A DNA stretch of 64,000 nucleotides from Candidatus Lustribacter sp. Lineage in GTDB: Bacteria > Vulcanimicrobiota > Vulcanimicrobiia > Vulcanimicrobiales > Vulcanimicrobiaceae. The notes under the pieces are model-generated. The model saw only the letters and a list, made by a program, of their open reading frames with translations, was not told the origin of the DNA and did not search any database. A program made the translations under genes and the position numbers. Below, in pieces: positions 3,444 through 10,244 of the stretch (positions are counted from its first letter, which is position 1; each line of letters opens with the position of its first letter). The stretch covers positions 1,856,001-1,920,000 of the forward strand of contig OZ255842.1 in NCBI GenBank assembly GCA_965277805.1. Direction: 5' to 3'.

Positions 3444-5213
3444 TTACACACTGAATTGAGCGGCGTGGAGCCCGGCGTAGGAGCCGCCGGAGGCCAGCAA
3501 AGCGTCGTGGGTCCCGGTCTCGCGGACCTCGCCGCTCTCGATATAGAGGATCTTGGTGGCGCGGCGGATCGTCGAGAGGCGGTGCGCGATGATCAGCGTC
3601 GTCCGGCCCGGGAGTATACGATCGAGCGCTTCCTCGATCAGGTGCTCGGAATGACTGTCCAGGGCGCTGGTGGCCTCGTCGAGGATTAGGATGCGGGGGT
3701 CGCGCAGGATCGCGCGGGCGATCGCGACCCGCTGGCGCTGGCCGCCCGAGAGCCGCACCCCGCGCTCGCCGACCCGGGTGTTGTAGCCGTCGGGCAGCGA
3801 CGAGACGAACTCGGCAACGTTGGCCTCGCGGGCCGCGGCCAGCACCTCGTCGTCGGTTGCCTCGAGGCGGCCGTAGCGGATGTTGTCGGCGATCGTGCCG
3901 TTGAAGAGCTGGGTCTCTTGCGGCACGAGGGCGATCGCCCCGCGCAGGTCGTCGAGGCGCACGCCGGCGATGTCGACCCCGTCGAGCGTGATGCGGCCGC
4001 CCTGGGGAGCATAGAAGCGCGGCACCAAGTTGGCGATGGTCGACTTGCCGGCGCCCGACGGCCCGACGAGCGCCACGATCTCGCCGTGCAGCATCTCGGC
4101 CGTGAAGCCGTCGAGCACCGGCGGGCCGTCGGGGCTATAGGCGAAGCGCACGTTCTCGAAGCGCACGTCGCCGACGATCGCCGGCATACGCACCGCGCCC
4201 GGCGGATCGTCGGCTTCGATCGGCAGATCGAGGACCTCGAACACGCGTGAGGCGCCGACCAGCGCGCGCGAGAAATCACCTAGGAAGATCGAGAACCGGT
4301 TCATCGGGTTGATCGTCAGCGCCATCGCGCCGAAGAACGCGATCGCTTGGGCCGGCGCGATGCGGCCCGCGCCGATTTCGCTCACCACCATCACGACGAT
4401 GACGATGATCGCGAGCGAGACGATCGTCGCGATCACCGGCGACTGCGTTTGGTTGAGCTGCGTGACCTTCATCTGCGCGCCGAAGTAGGCGTCGTTGGCG
4501 CTCGCGAAGCGGTCGCGCTCGAAGTTCTCGCGGCGGAACGCCTTGACCACGCGCTGATTTCCCAGCACTTCGGCGAGGTTCGAGGAGACGTCGGCGATGC
4601 GTTCCTGCGCCATGCGCGTGCTGACGGTGACCAGTTTGTTAAACCGGCCGATGACGATCGAGACGACCGGCGTGCAGGCCAGCAGCACGATCGCAAGTAC
4701 CCAGTCGAGCGAGACCATCCAGGCGACCGCGGCGACGAACGTGACCGTGACCTGCACCATCTGCGGCAGCGAGATGCTCACCGCGTCGATCATCAGCCCA
4801 AGGTCGATCGAAAAGCGCGACATGAATTCGCCCGGGCGCCAGCGATCGTAATCCGCCAGCGACATGCGATTGACGTGATCGAACATGCGCGCGCGCAGCG
4901 AGGCGATCATGCGCTGACCGGCCCACGCGGTCATGTAGCTCTGGCCGTAGCCGGCCAAGTTTCCGATGACCTGCGAGATGAAGATCACGCCGCAGACGAT
5001 CCACAGCGCGGTCCAATCGATGTATGTCGGCAGCGTGACGCCGTGAACGACCGGCTGGTAGTGGATGACCCGCGTCATCAGCAAGCCCGGCAGCTGCAAG
5101 AGCACCGTCGGCGCGATGCCGGCGATCACACCGAGAAGCATCGCCACCCCGACGCGGCCGAGATACGGCCGCGCCTCCAAGTAGATGCGATGCAGGACCA
5201 CCGAGCGTTCCAC
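3444..5213 (-). CDS. ABC exporter, fused TMD+NBD (MsbA-like)
   Basis: N-terminal transmembrane helices, Walker A GPSGAGKST, LSGGQRQR signature, LILDEATSALD. GTG 5213 preferred to the ORF-track start at 5543. Confidence 0.9.
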   Translation of the reverse strand: MERSVVLHRIYLEARPYLGRVGVAMLLGVIAGIAPTVLLQLPGLLMTRVIHYQPVVHGVTLPTYIDWTALWIVCGVIFISQVIGNLAGYGQSYMTAWAGQRMIASLRARMFDHVNRMSLADYDRWRPGEFMSRFSIDLGLMIDAVSISLPQMVQVTVTFVAAVAWMVSLDWVLAIVLLACTPVVSIVIGRFNKLVTVSTRMAQERIADVSSNLAEVLGNQRVVKAFRRENFERDRFASANDAYFGAQMKVTQLNQTQSPVIATIVSLAIIVIVVMVVSEIGAGRIAPAQAIAFFGAMALTINPMNRFSIFLGDFSRALVGASRVFEVLDLPIEADDPPGAVRMPAIVGDVRFENVRFAYSPDGPPVLDGFTAEMLHGEIVALVGPSGAGKSTIANLVPRFYAPQGGRITLDGVDIAGVRLDDLRGAIALVPQETQLFNGTIADNIRYGRLEATDDEVLAAAREANVAEFVSSLPDGYNTRVGERGVRLSGGQRQRVAIARAILRDPRILILDEATSALDSHSEHLIEEALDRILPGRTTLIIAHRLSTIRRATKILYIESGEVRETGTHDALLASGGSYAGLHAAQFSV

Positions 5214-5296
5214 GCCTCGCGCTTTGCGCGCCAAGCGGCGAAACCTTCGCTGCGGTCGCCCGGTACATGCGACGAAACCCGATGGGAGGCCAAAGC

Positions 5297-5908
5297 GTGG
5301 ACTGTTATTTTCATCATGCGGTGCCGTCCGTGGCCCGCTGCGCGGACTGCGGTAAGTCGATTTGCGCGACGTGCCGCGACGAGCAGGGTGCCTGCCCGAG
5401 CTGCCGTCTCGCCGCGCGAATCGACCAAGCCGCCGCGCAGCGGCAAACCCTGGCAGGCGGCGTCGGGCCGTCGTCCAAGGCGAGCGCCGGCCACGACGAT
5501 GCGAACGAGTGGCGCCGGCAGTGGCAGTCCAGCGCGCCCACACCGCCGCCGCAGCGCTCGACGGCCGTGGCCAACGTGCGGCCCGAGTCGCGCGCGCTCG
5601 TTGCGCTCGGCTACCCGTTCTGGCCGCTCGCGCTAATCGCGCTCTTCGACCGGTCGGGCTCGAACTTCGTCCGCCGCAACGCGTGGCAGGCGCTCGGGTT
5701 CAACGCCGGCATGTACGGGCTCGGCTGGCTGTTTTCATCGATCGCGATGATCCCGTTGATCGGCATGTCGGCCTGGCCGCTGCTGCCGTTCATCGTGCCG
5801 GTCACGATCGTCGCGAGCGTGGTCTACGCCATCAAGGTGTGGCATGGTGACGACGTGCACGTGCCGTTTGTCTCGGAGATCGTCGACCAGAAGCTCTCGC
5901 CGAGCTAG
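5297..5908 (+). CDS. B-box-type zinc finger plus DUF4870-like membrane protein
   Basis: CYFH..CADCGKSICATC..CPSC N-terminus; three C-terminal hydrophobic helices with FVRRNAWQAL; GGGAGG before GTG 5297. Confidence 0.7.
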   Translation: MDCYFHHAVPSVARCADCGKSICATCRDEQGACPSCRLAARIDQAAAQRQTLAGGVGPSSKASAGHDDANEWRRQWQSSAPTPPPQRSTAVANVRPESRALVALGYPFWPLALIALFDRSGSNFVRRNAWQALGFNAGMYGLGWLFSSIAMIPLIGMSAWPLLPFIVPVTIVASVVYAIKVWHGDDVHVPFVSEIVDQKLSPS

Positions 5909-7317
5909 GCGACGACCTCGGCGCGATAGCGCGCGAGGAAGGCCCGCGCCGCTTCCTCGTGATCGAGGATCGGCGCGGGATATTGCCGCGCACCGAAGAG
6001 CGGCAGCGCGAGTTGCGGCTGCCGTTCCCCGCGCTCGAAGATCGTGGCATCGGGCAAACCCGCCAGCTCGGGGATCCAGCGCCGCACGTAACCGGCCGCC
6101 GGATCGAAGCGGTGCGCCTGTTTGACCGGGTTGTAGATGCGCGGATAAGCGGCGAGATCGGCACCAACTCCCGCGACCCACTGCCAGTTGGCCGTCGCCA
6201 GCGCCGGATCGTCTTCGATCAGGAAGCGGTCCCACTCATCGCGGCCGACGCGCCAATCGACGCCCAGATCGAAGCACAGGAACGACGCGCTGATCGCGCG
6301 CACGCGCGGATGCATCCGTCCCGTTGCGCGCAGTTCGCGCATCCCCGCGTCGACGAGCGGAAAACCGGTCGTGCCGCTGCGCCACGCATCGAGTTGCGGA
6401 TGCGTGCGCGCGAAGGCGAAGCGGCGCATCTTCTCTTGCAGCGGCGCATCGTCGAGCGCGTCGTTGTACCACCCGAGCTGCAGAAAGAAATCGCGTTGCG
6501 CGAGCGCGCGCAGCCACAGGCGCACCGCGGTCGTTTCTTCGCTGAGCAGAAACGGGTCGGTGGCGCGAGCGCAGGCTCCGCGCACCGCGCTGCGCGCCGA
6601 GATCAGGCCGAACGACAATTCGGCCGAGAGCTCCGATGTTGCGCCGGCGTCGGGTACGTTGCGCGCGATGCCGTAGCCGAGGATCGGGCCGTTGAGGAAC
6701 GCCGCGAGCTTCTCGGCGGCGGCGGCCGGCGAGACCCCGCCGGCATCGTCATCGCGTCCGCCGAATTCGGCCGCCACCGGCAATGCCTCGCTCGCCACCT
6801 CGACCCGCGAGAAATGGACCGGCGGCGGGGCGTCGACCGGAATGAGCGTTCGCCAGCGCTCGAAGTACGGCACGAACGCGCGCCAGCCGTCGCCGCTGCG
6901 GTGCGCGAGCGCGATGTCCTCGGGCGGCACGACCGGTGCATCGTGCACGGCGAGGACGCGAATCCCCGACTCCTCGAGCGCGGCCTGCACGTCGCGGTCA
7001 GCGCGGATCTCCTTGGCGTCGTAGCGGACGCTCCAGGCCACCGTTTCGGCACCGATCCCGCGGGCGAGCGAACGCAGCGTCGCGGCCGTCCCGCCCCGGC
7101 GCACGATCAGCCGGCCGCCGCGCGCCGCGATGGCCGCATCGAGCGCGGCAACCGCGGCGCAGTAGAAGGCCGCGCGCCGGGGTGATGCCCGCAGGCGGGC
7201 GGAGCGCACCGGATCGAGGACGAGCACGGGCACGACCTCGCCGTAGCGCGCGGCTTCGGCGAGCCCGAGGTGATCCTCAACGCGCAAATCGCGCGTGAAC
7301 GCGAAGAGCGTCTTCAG
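5905..7317 (-). CDS. Photolyase/cryptochrome family protein, divergent active site
   Basis: FTRDLRVEDH, TSELSAELSFGLISAR, WRSGTTGFPLVDAGMREL..MH.R.R, NWQWVAG..RIYNP. Start uncertain: CTG 7317 proposed; the ORF track gives TTG 7368. Confidence 0.9.
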   Translation of the reverse strand: MKTLFAFTRDLRVEDHLGLAEAARYGEVVPVLVLDPVRSARLRASPRRAAFYCAAVAALDAAIAARGGRLIVRRGGTAATLRSLARGIGAETVAWSVRYDAKEIRADRDVQAALEESGIRVLAVHDAPVVPPEDIALAHRSGDGWRAFVPYFERWRTLIPVDAPPPVHFSRVEVASEALPVAAEFGGRDDDAGGVSPAAAAEKLAAFLNGPILGYGIARNVPDAGATSELSAELSFGLISARSAVRGACARATDPFLLSEETTAVRLWLRALAQRDFFLQLGWYNDALDDAPLQEKMRRFAFARTHPQLDAWRSGTTGFPLVDAGMRELRATGRMHPRVRAISASFLCFDLGVDWRVGRDEWDRFLIEDDPALATANWQWVAGVGADLAAYPRIYNPVKQAHRFDPAAGYVRRWIPELAGLPDATIFERGERQPQLALPLFGARQYPAPILDHEEAARAFLARYRAEVVA

Positions 7318-7454
7318 CGCGCGAACCGGCGGTCGATCATAAAGCCGCCGTTCTTCGCTTCGCCTCAAAGCTTCCTTTGCTAGGCGGGACGCCCCGGCTC
7401 ACAATCTCCGCACGGTAAGAGGAGAACCGTAAAATTCTTGTTCAATTCTCTCGC

Positions 7455-7946
7455 GTGCCTCACATTGCTCTGCGCGCGTGCACGACGCGCGACGTGACGC
7501 GGCTCGTGAACGACGGTGTGCTCACGGGCGCGCTCCCCGGTGGGGAGAGCTGGCCCAGCCGCGCCGCCCAGTGGCTGGAAGAAATGAAGGAAGGCCGCCG
7601 GCTCGTCATGATCGCCGAATTCGACGGCAAGACAGTGGGCATGGGCCAACTGATCTTCAAGTTCGCAAACGGCTACCAAGATCCGGAGGCCGCCAACGGC
7701 GCGGAGATCGCAATGATCGATTCGATCCGCATGCGCCCCGATGCGCCGGCAAATCTCTCCACGCACATCATCTCCGAACTCGAAAAGTACGCGAAGAAAA
7801 CGAAGCGCATCAAAATCCTCACGTTCCTCGTCCCGATGGACAACAACCGCGCGCTCAACCAAGTGAAGAGCTGGGGCTTCGAAGAATTCCGCATCATGCC
7901 CGAAGGCGCGAAGTTGCTCGCGTTCTTCCGCAAACGCATCGCGTGA
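7455..7946 (+). CDS. GNAT-family acetyltransferase-like protein
   Basis: MIAEFDGKTVGMGQL strand and C-terminal NNRALNQVKSWGF (motif B-like); CoA-binding motif A is degenerate. Confidence 0.65.
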   Translation: MPHIALRACTTRDVTRLVNDGVLTGALPGGESWPSRAAQWLEEMKEGRRLVMIAEFDGKTVGMGQLIFKFANGYQDPEAANGAEIAMIDSIRMRPDAPANLSTHIISELEKYAKKTKRIKILTFLVPMDNNRALNQVKSWGFEEFRIMPEGAKLLAFFRKRIA

Positions 7947-9018: not shown

Positions 9019-9231
9019 ATGAACATCTTCGATACGGCACAATGGCGCGAATTCGAGAGCGAACAATGGCATCAAGCAGTGCGCAACCGCGGCCTAGAAC
9101 TGCGCTCCCTCGACGTGGATGAACGCGGCCTCGTCTTCGACGCCATCACGACCGACCTCGAACGCCGCAAACGCGCGCGCGAGGCGGCCGAGACGCCGAC
9201 GATTCACCCGTCGCTGACCGACTGTCCTTAG
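9019..9231 (+). CDS. Small hypothetical protein (70 aa)
   Basis: AGAGG upstream of the ATG, GC-rich third positions, 4-bp overlap with the convergent moaA stop. Confidence 0.6.
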   Translation: MNIFDTAQWREFESEQWHQAVRNRGLELRSLDVDERGLVFDAITTDLERRKRAREAAETPTIHPSLTDCP

Positions 9232-10244
9232 CCGCCGATTTCGCTTAGGGCGCGCATGGCGCTGGCGGTTTGGCCGATGTCGAGGTGGTGCCGTTCGGGT
9301 TTGACGTACATCGAGCCGCGCAGGATTGCGATAAGGGCTTCTTCGCCGGCGCGATCGCGGACCGGCGTGCGCAGATCGATGAAGTGATCGCCGAAGAGGC
9401 ACAGCTTCAGGCGGCCGTCTGCGGAGAGGCGCACGCGGTTGCACGTATCGCAGTAGTCATGCGAGAGCGGTGAGATTACGCCGACGCTGCCGGCCGCGCC
9501 GTCGAAGGCGTAGTAGCGCGCGGGGCCGTTGCCCTTCGGGCCCTCGACCGGCTGCAGGTCGCCGTTCGTCCGAATGCGCTCGAGGATCTCGGTCGCGCTG
9601 ATGTACTGGTTCTCATGGCCGTCCACGTTTTCGTGCACGGGCATCACCTCGATAAAGCGCACGGCAACGGCGCGATCGCGCGTCATCTCCGCGAAGGCTT
9701 GCACTTCATCGTCATTCTGACCGCGCATCACGACGCAGTTGAGCTTGATCGGACCGAGGCCTGCGGCGAAGGCCGCGTCGATGCCCGCAAGCACGCGCTG
9801 CAATCCCGGCCGGCGCGCGATCGCTTCGAAGCGATCCTCACGCAGCGTATCGAGGGAAATGTTCGCGCGCGTGAGGCCCGCGTCGACCAAGCCTTGCACT
9901 TGCTCCGCCAGCAGCAGGCCGTTGGTCGAGAGCGCGATGTCATCGATGCCGGGAATCGCGGACAGCATCGCGACGAGGCGCTTGAGGTCCTTGCGGATCA
10001 GCGGCTCGCCGCCGGTAAGGCGAATGCTGCGCACGCCGACCTTGGCCGCGGCGCGCACGATCTCGGCAATCTCCTCATAGGTGAGGATCTCGCGCTTGTC
10101 GATCCACGGCAAGCCCTCTTCGGGCATGCAGTAGACGCAGCGCAGATTGCAGCGATCCGTCACCGAGATGCGGAGATAGGTAATCGGCCGATGGAAGGCG
10201 TCGGCGAGCTGCGGCTCCGTCGGCCTCGCAATCAAATCGATCAT
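9228..10244 (-). CDS. moaA: GTP 3',8-cyclase MoaA
   Basis: LRISVTDRCNLRCVYCMP, RLTGGEPL, CDTCNRVRL..LCL, C-terminal IGG. Confidence 0.97.
   Translation of the reverse strand: MIDLIARPTEPQLADAFHRPITYLRISVTDRCNLRCVYCMPEEGLPWIDKREILTYEEIAEIVRAAAKVGVRSIRLTGGEPLIRKDLKRLVAMLSAIPGIDDIALSTNGLLLAEQVQGLVDAGLTRANISLDTLREDRFEAIARRPGLQRVLAGIDAAFAAGLGPIKLNCVVMRGQNDDEVQAFAEMTRDRAVAVRFIEVMPVHENVDGHENQYISATEILERIRTNGDLQPVEGPKGNGPARYYAFDGAAGSVGVISPLSHDYCDTCNRVRLSADGRLKLCLFGDHFIDLRTPVRDRAGEEALIAILRGSMYVKPERHHLDIGQTASAMRALSEIGG

Follow-up and report, generated by a model that had tools for sequence, protein, structure and literature searches.

Introduction

Within the cryptochrome/photolyase family (CPF), class III photolyases of cyclobutane pyrimidine dimers (CPDs) are the stock from which the plant cryptochromes arose, and (6-4) photolyases are marked by a catalytic His pair. 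Here, a divergent bacterial member of the family is described. It is encoded in a 64,000-nucleotide stretch of the genome of Candidatus Lustribacter sp. (GenBank assembly GCA_965277805.1, contig OZ255842.1, positions 1,856,001 to 1,920,000 of the forward strand), hereafter referred to as the window, and its lineage is a new subclass of the photolyase/cryptochrome family.

According to the available portion of PMC8476157, the substrate site of the E. coli photolyase is formed by E274, W277, N341, M345 and W384, and its flavin site, in the same source and in the available portion of PMC9356274, by R344, D372, A377, N378 and G381. The latter text describes a polar or small residue at site 377 as stabilising reduced flavin adenine dinucleotide (FADH−) and repair, whereas a hydrophobic one has the opposite effect and is typical of animal cryptochromes; it associates Asn381 with low radical stability, and attributes to the Asn at flavin N5 a hydrogen bond that stabilises the reduced flavin, this residue being Asp in plant and Cys in insect cryptochromes. 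Both PMC9356274 and PMC12335480 present Cys at the N5 site as the distinguishing feature of type I animal cryptochromes. In the latter, Cys416, Leu401 and Leu405 of the Drosophila cryptochrome (dCRY) are said to govern flavin protonation, and the position held by Leu405 in dCRY and by Glu392 in the Drosophila (6-4) photolyase is described as a proton-transfer site.

Results

A complete gene for a two-domain photolyase fold

The open reading frame (ORF) list and its translation revealed an intact CPF gene of 487 codons plus a stop codon (5905-5907), the start of which is likely a TTG at 7368 with AAGGAAG located 2 bases before it. A previous sequence-only reading of the window had placed this gene at 5905..7317. 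The lower end of that interval and the uninterrupted frame were borne out, but its upper end was not, as 7317 is a CTG lying 17 codons inside the ORF and the residues ahead of it are conserved among close orthologues. The gene is monocistronic, with no cistron partner, a divergent neighbour upstream and a convergent one downstream, and a scan for promoters and terminators at the gene gave nothing exceeding shuffles. The gene and the domains of its product are as follows:

5905..7368, minus strand: complete CPF gene of the Ala type (A-type; ORF list, start context, Pfam PF00875 and PF03441, AlphaFold2 model)
6838..7299, minus strand: N-terminal alpha/beta photolyase domain, residues 24-177, possible antenna-chromophore domain (PF00875, E 4.7e-32)
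5923..6516, minus strand: FAD-binding helical domain, residues 285-482 (PF03441, E 2e-60; Foldseek template-modelling (TM) score 0.88 to 1QNF)

Both family domains scored above their cut-offs, with 111.6 bits for PF00875 (cut-off 26.6) and 204.1 bits for PF03441 (cut-off 27). Structure prediction, which the sequence-only reading had put forward as a check, returned a two-domain photolyase fold modelled with confidence from an 84-sequence alignment (predicted local distance difference test 92.5, predicted TM score 0.91). The best structural match of this model was 1QNF of class I, followed by the cryptochrome AtCRY1 (0.84), class III 4U63 (0.82) and E. coli 1DNP (0.81). The ESM Atlas returned generic photolyase clusters only.

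Replacement of the substrate and flavin pockets

The protein was aligned with HMMER to the solved photolyases 4U63, 1OWL and 1TEZ, and with MAFFT to E. coli Phr (NC_000913). Both alignments agreed with the register to E. coli PhrB that had been set by eye in the sequence-only reading from four motifs of the minus-strand translation:

residues 285-295: WLRALAQRDFF
residues 316-323: RFAFARTH
residues 352-358: MHPRVRA
residues 384-397: IEDDPALATANWQW

Accordingly, sites are numbered hereafter as in the E. coli enzyme, and the features that depend on this register are the following:

6496..6507, minus strand: codons 288-291 (A-L-A-Q), E274 to Ala and W277 to Gln, former CPD pocket (alignments)
6412..6414, minus strand: codon 319 (Phe) in place of W306, with which the Trp triad of photoreduction ends (alignments; variable in the clade)
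6295..6309, minus strand: codons 354-358 (P-R-V-R-A), N341 to Pro, R342 and R344 kept, M345 to Ala (alignments)
6229..6234, minus strand: codons 379-380 (W-D), added Trp at site 366 and acid at site 367 (alignments)
6178..6216, minus strand: codons 385-397 (EDDPALATANWQW), rebuilt flavin pocket with W382 and W384 kept as W395 and W397 (alignments)

According to these alignments, the CPD pocket of E. coli is changed at four of its five positions, to small or variable residues, and only W384 (W397) is kept. The replacements are E274 to A288, W277 to Q291, N341 to P354 and M345 to A358, which together with that of N378 by A391 are among those that the sequence-only reading had proposed. In the flavin pocket four of five residues are changed also, so that R, E, L, A and N stand in place of R, D, A, N and G: D372 is replaced by E385, A377 by L390, N378 by A391 and G381 by N394, whereas R344 is kept as R357. 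Most FAD contacts were found retained, as had been claimed for the FAD-binding segments, including the equivalents of Y222, T234, L237, R278, H340 and R344, and so were the Trp residues W359, W382 and W384 (W372, W395 and W397). By the offset of -11 to the N5 residue given in the available portion of PMC12335480, site 367 would be equivalent to Leu405 of dCRY and Glu392 of Dm(6-4).

Conservation of the substitutions and selection

A word-indexed search listed 120 orthologues of 66-97% identity, with source names indicating Eremiobacterota. Among these, the pocket sites were occupied by Ala (63) or Ser (56) at 274, Gln at 277 (100), Phe at 306 (120), Pro at 341 (119) and Ala (111) or Ser (9) at 345, and the flavin sites by Glu at 372 (120), Leu at 377 (118), Ala (119) or Ser (1) at 378 and Asn at 381 (120). 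A broader table of 53 rows was built from species genomes, with 52 A-type rows (one of them, L081, cut by a contig end) and 1 canonical control. P341 was present in 52/52 A-type rows, and A378 in 48 (Ser in 2), L377 in 46, N381 in 50 and E372 in 50; W366 was found in 48 rows, Asp or Glu at site 367 in 50, W382 in 51 and W359 in 52. Site 274 was Ala in 27 rows and Ser in 24. Other sites drifted in this table, such as 277 (Gln 22, Arg 13, Leu 7, also Met, His, Lys, Phe and Glu), 226 (Arg 25, Ala 10, Val 5, Leu 4, also Met, Gly, Cys and Thr) and 342 (Arg 29, His 17, Lys 4). Former substrate and DNA-contact sites thus drift while flavin-lining sites stay fixed, and therefore the constraint has shifted from the substrate pocket to the surroundings of the flavin.

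The exchange of W306 for F319 holds for the window protein but is not clade-wide, since in the same table Phe was found in 40 rows, Trp in 9 and other residues in 4. As Trp is present in some clade members and absent from some canonical proteins, this exchange carries less weight than had been assigned to it.

Several of the substituted positions are nearly invariant in canonical class I/III representatives (n=129), with N341 in 99%, W277 in 98%, N378 in 128/129, D372 in 129/129 and F366 in 127/129, and the substitutions are far beyond chance when set against this conservation. Comparison of 33 clade rows with the 129 canonical rows identified N341P, K353F, F366W, D372E, N378A, F396P, F399Y, R457A and A377L as the clade-defining switches, and the flavin-lining residues as the most conserved novelties of the clade. 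In the N-terminal domain, R64, C70, W112, Q128, E132 and E150 were both invariant and specific to the clade. Overall isoelectric point and charge were similar in clade and canonical enzymes and did not separate them.

In an exhaustive search of 1.84 billion representatives, the best 150 matches were listed, of which the 136 with at least 400 residues were analysed and the 14 shorter ones were dropped. The signature was detected in P0124, P0125, P0126, P0128, P0130, P0136 and P0140 only; P0132 was a variant of it, and the rest of the 136 were canonical. In a separate observation, the class I-like bacterial representative P0214 was found to combine Gln274 with an Asp378 at N5 like that of plant cryptochromes, and may be another independent cryptochrome-like change.

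Pairwise ratios of nonsynonymous to synonymous substitution rates (dN/dS) ranged from 0.04 to 0.18 among six close orthologues, and the clade is under purifying selection. Taken with the 120 orthologues and the 53-row table, these values show that the substitutions are common to orthologues and are not the product of decay; simple decay was rejected on the same grounds. Of the 52 A-type rows, only L078 (OY970223.1, 2501-3888) was broken, its frame being shifted or interrupted by two stops.

Distribution, sister branch and canonical paralogue

For the distribution of the lineage, 301 genomes of the phylum were scanned at E<=1e-20, among which f1 designates the family of the window, f2 a family of the same order and f3 a family of the same class. 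Matches were obtained in 203/206 genomes of f1, 3/3 of f2, 21/22 of f3 and 5/69 of other families. For five of the 203 f1 matches (G077, G213, G246, G290 and G292) the best E value was only 1e-29 to 1e-60, in the range of canonical paralogues, so about 198 f1 genomes hold the A-type. The presence tallies given here at E<=1e-20 and E<=1e-90 take in some genomes flagged as unpublished, from which no sequences were taken. The clade loci with record titles belonged to Eremiobacterota/Vulcanimicrobiota (e.g. Candidatus Lustribacter, Elarobacter, Velthaea and Cybelea), with a few bins labelled otherwise; none of the 37 and 80 loci returned was from Vulcanimicrobium alpinus. Within the phylum Eremiobacterota, the lineage has been passed on by vertical descent in the class Eremiobacteria. 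A 567-residue distant CPF relative, L056 (G070, from f20, another family of the phylum), aligned poorly and without W382, W384 and N378, and may belong to another CPF class.

In f3, the encoded protein is a P0132-like relative of about 40% identity and was the sole match in 9/10 genomes examined, the tenth holding a canonical copy too. This sister branch had Cys378 in 10/10 genomes (Ser only in the representative P0132), as well as Asn381, Gln341 and R344 replaced by Ala or Gly in 10/10. Site 377 was hydrophobic (Leu or Ile) in 8/10, W366 was present in 9/10, W384 was replaced by Arg or His in 5/10, and site 367 was Met, the same residue as in E. coli.

The genome of the window also carries a canonical class I-like paralogue in which all ten pocket residues are kept:

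G000:C1:4213429-4214862 (locus L001, 1474-2910), minus strand: canonical class I-like paralogue (alignment)

In the photoreduction triad of this paralogue, both W306 and W359 are replaced by Tyr. Paralogues of the canonical type were detected in 91/211 f1 genomes (56/128 of the high-quality ones) at E<=1e-90. No match to PF04244 was found in 5/5 closed genomes of relatives or in the window's own genome.

Phylogeny and comparison with known classes

Phylogeny, another check named in the sequence-only reading, placed the lineage in a clade of its own on a long stem. Unrooted IQ-TREE trees (LG+C20, quick search) of chosen subsets of 56 and 52 rows gave Shimodaira-Hasegawa-like approximate likelihood ratio supports of 99-100 for the Ala type, 100 for the Cys type and 99-100 for both together, with a common stem about 0.5-0.6 changes per site long. 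Within the lineage, the branching matched the taxonomy of f1, f2 and f3, and a FastTree of 139 rows, from which three broken rows were left out, agreed with these results. In the free trees the lineage fell outside the E. coli-type group and the class III group, the latter labelled by P0162 (565 bits to 4U63), and the class III core grouped without it with a support of 92-93. A tree joining the lineage to the class III core was not rejected and gained 33 log-likelihood units over the quick free tree, with a p value of 0.86 in the approximately unbiased test (unrooted). As no outgroup was included in the trees, no root is claimed.

When NCBIfam models were compared, all scores fell below cut-off. 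The top match was TIGR03556 (8-hydroxydeazaflavin (8-HDF) type; 249.2 vs. 884.6 bits), followed by NF007955 (E. coli-type photolyase; 233.2 vs. 506), TIGR02766 (plant cryptochrome; 185.7 vs. 603.85) and TIGR02765 (Cry-DASH; 162 vs. 317.05), the last value leading to rejection of a Cry-DASH assignment.

Among PDB entries, the class III photolyase PhrA of Agrobacterium (4U63) matched best in sequence (208 bits); it has the same length, a bilobal fold and, in common with the window protein, a D-P-A...A-N-W-Q-W-V-A-G motif in which site 381 is Asn. However, class III enzymes keep E/Q274, W277, N341, M345, D372 and N378. Class I photolyases gave similar scores (207 bits for Anacystis nidulans 1QNF/1OWL and 186 bits for E. 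coli 1DNP), but identity to E. coli is limited to one of five residues in the substrate site and to one of five in the flavin site. Membership in class I was thus rejected by the changed residues of both sites and by the NF007955 and TIGR03556 scores far below their cut-offs.

The photolyase homology region of AtCRY1 (1U3C) matched with 176 bits. Plant cryptochromes and this lineage both appear to be derived from class I/III, both are without the CPD-pocket residues and both have an acid near the flavin as a potential proton donor, but in the window protein this acid is at site 367 and not at 378, which is Ala391, a long C-terminal extension is absent and the lineage is bacterial. Membership among the plant cryptochromes was rejected by Ala391, by an end level with that of E. 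coli Phr and by the TIGR02766 score. With the Drosophila cryptochrome the protein shares a bulky hydrophobic residue at 377, the absence of Asn378 and the presence of Asn381, to which the sister branch adds Cys378; it differs from it in Ala391 instead of Cys, in an acid where dCRY has Leu405 and in the lack of a C-terminal tail. The structures of (6-4) photolyases and animal cryptochromes scored 72-98 bits compared to 186-208 for class I/III, so the protein does not descend from them, and a type I animal cryptochrome, which L390 and N394 would fit, was rejected by Ala391 and by these scores. A (6-4)-type active site was rejected also, the protein having Pro at 341 and Ala at 345 in place of the His pair, and so were the iron-sulfur cryptochromes and photolyases of bacteria (FeS-BCP), or prokaryotic (6-4) photolyases, as there was no match to PF04244 (DPRP).

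The lineage stands outside class I and, judged by its flavin pocket, would work most like a cryptochrome. The eight CPF groups listed in the available portion of PMC8476157 do not include it, and a search of the literature on Eremiobacterota/WPS-2 photolyases and bacterial cryptochromes, supplementary files not being covered, gave no description of the clade. The register, the shared substitutions, the selection and the separate clade together support the sequence-only proposal of a new CPF subclass that is not a CPD photolyase. They also go beyond it, since the flavin pocket as a whole has been remodelled towards that of cryptochromes and the sister branch has the Cys of insect cryptochromes.

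Neighbourhood and organism

The genes around the CPF gene are the following:

5267..5908, plus strand: B-box-like zinc finger and DUF4870 membrane protein, convergent (PF09685; overlaps the 3' end of the CPF gene by 4 bases)
3444-5543, minus strand: ABC exporter (ABC_membrane and ABC_tran domain matches)
7455-7946, plus strand: divergent 163-residue protein, 86 bases from the CPF start, with a sub-threshold GNAT match
9228-10244, minus strand: MoaA, flanking the locus

In the convergent neighbour, an eight-ligand zinc finger forms the N-terminus and is joined by a low-complexity linker to a DUF4870 domain. The ligands C13, H16, C25, C28, C33, C36, C43 and C46 were invariant in 25 sequences, with a B-box-like spacing, and the gene adjoins the CPF gene in 25/25 f1 and 5/5 f3 loci. 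The protein is a candidate partner of the CPF protein, although the ABC exporter beyond it is retained too and so the adjacency may be plain synteny. The ABC exporter and MoaA keep their positions in most Eremiobacteria loci examined, an unusually stable gene order. The 163-residue protein, for which no relative was found in the PDB, matched GNAT below threshold (E 0.0012, 19.5 vs. 20.7 bits cut-off) and was within the fetched CPF flank in 16/25 f1 loci, mostly directly upstream.

Outside the window, the same genome holds two adjacent Photo_RC genes of the pufL/pufM type (G000:C1:4644464-4646070), so the organism is probably an anoxygenic phototroph. Only one member of the family has been cultured, Vulcanimicrobium alpinus, and it shows phototaxis to 470, 527 and 624 nm; in the available portion of the paper describing it, a homologue of photoactive yellow protein and a rhodopsin are the only candidate receptors, photolyases or cryptochromes are never mentioned and no receptor is identified for the 470-nm phototaxis (PMC9758169).

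Discussion

The above results are most simply read as those of a flavin photoreceptor or redox sensor, derived from a CPD photolyase, that would no longer repair CPDs, a proposal to which we give somewhat better than even credence. In a well-kept homologue, almost all of the residues required for repair have been exchanged for cryptochrome-typical ones, so that bacteria may have in it a new sensor of blue light. Also, the fixed Trp366 and the invariant acid at site 367 suggest that photoreduction chemistry could be what selection maintains; F366 was once discussed as a mediator of electron transfer.

Since the N5 Asn is missing and the bulky Leu377 and Asn381 are present, the FADH− and FADH• states would presumably not be held as in photolyases. 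In the mechanism proposed here, the flavin would rest as oxidised FAD and be reduced by blue light via W395 and W372, possibly with the help of the new W379. The invariant Asp/Glu367 (Asp380) could then give a proton to yield a neutral radical as in plant cryptochromes, or else an anionic radical would be formed as in those of insects, and the Cys-type sister protein would form the anionic radical. The reduced flavin would be the signal, and cyclobutane dimers would not be split.

A wider interpretation, tentative and on the doubtful side, is that cryptochromes arose in the class Eremiobacteria separately from those of plants and animals, out of a class I/III-type photolyase, in a Cys378 type that would mimic the insect protein with its anionic radical and an Ala378/Asp367 type in which a relocated proton donor would lead to a neutral one as in plants, the window protein being the missing blue-light receptor for the control of phototaxis or photosynthesis in the phylum. 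Under this interpretation, signalling might proceed via the adjoining B-box-like membrane protein.

Several points weigh against a sensor. The protein has no cryptochrome-type C-terminal output extension, with 487 residues compared to 472 in E. coli, and a search for fused or longer forms, weak evidence in itself, gave none at E<=1e-60. Flavin binding, redox state and the loss of repair are deduced from sequence, the signalling partner is a candidate, and the equivalence of site 367 to dCRY Leu405 stands on residue offsets and not on structural superposition. In addition, R226, R342, R397 and W384 are kept in 120/120 sequences of the window's sub-branch, which fits continued binding of DNA or nucleotides, and the divergent protein is the sole PF03441 match in 5/5 closed genomes, which were chosen for having a single match. 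Near-universal retention as the only family member would suit a housekeeping repair enzyme equally well.

These last observations bear on the strongest of the alternatives, which we consider unlikely though deserving of serious attention, namely that the protein is still a light-driven repair enzyme, acting on CPDs via a non-canonical pocket or on another lesion or form of nucleic acid, and is the main photolyase of the lineage. Besides the single-match genomes, in which PF04244 is absent, nearly all of the matches in 203/206 f1 genomes are of this type and a canonical paralogue was found in just 91/211; R278 is kept in the sub-branch along with the residues named above, and the overall charge is similar to that of canonical enzymes. 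On the other side, the N5 Asn has been replaced along with four of the five residues of the substrate site, and the title of a 2008 article by Xu et al. reportedly calls Asn378 crucial for DNA repair. Sites 226, 277 and 342 vary freely and W384 is gone in half of the sister branch, which a fixed substrate would not permit, and with Pro and Ala at sites 341 and 345 the His pair of (6-4) catalysis is absent.

A light-independent sensor of redox state or of a ligand, or else a scaffold for regulation in which the enlarged former lesion pocket binds a small molecule or peptide as in mammalian cryptochromes, seems distinctly less probable. It would accord with a pocket lined by the smaller residues A288, Q291, P354 and A358, with the loss of the R344-D372 salt bridge in 10/10 members of the sister branch, suggesting weaker flavin binding there, and with the presence of the clade in nearly all f1 genomes, phototrophy having been checked in that of the window alone. 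However, W382 and W359, which serve photoreduction only, are kept in 51/53 and 52/53 rows, a new Trp366 is found in 48/53, and the most conserved novelties are those that line the flavin. Finally, a decaying, functionless photolyase paralogue, in favour of which stands the one A-type copy of 52 with in-frame stops (L078), is most improbable, given that the ORF is intact, with dN/dS of 0.04-0.18 and substitutions fixed in 120 orthologues as well as in over 50 genomes of species, and that the A-type is retained where the canonical enzyme was not found.

The proposed flavin photoreceptor or redox sensor would stand apart from the described bacterial cryptochromes, which in the available portion of a 2024 structural review are only of the DASH or FeS type and all of which keep, or are assayed for, repair activity. 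If the proposal is true, the lineage would represent a third independent transition from photolyase to cryptochrome, in this case class I/III-derived, bacterial and with a non-Asn N5 site, and its natural sister variants, one with Ala plus a nearby acid and the other with Cys, would make it possible to test directly in what way the signalling state of the flavin is set by the surroundings of N5. Nearly every member of a little-known group of soil and bog bacteria carries the protein. The genes of the clade are publicly annotated as 'deoxyribodipyrimidine photo-lyase', and these labels probably exaggerate the photoreactivation capacity of Eremiobacterota.

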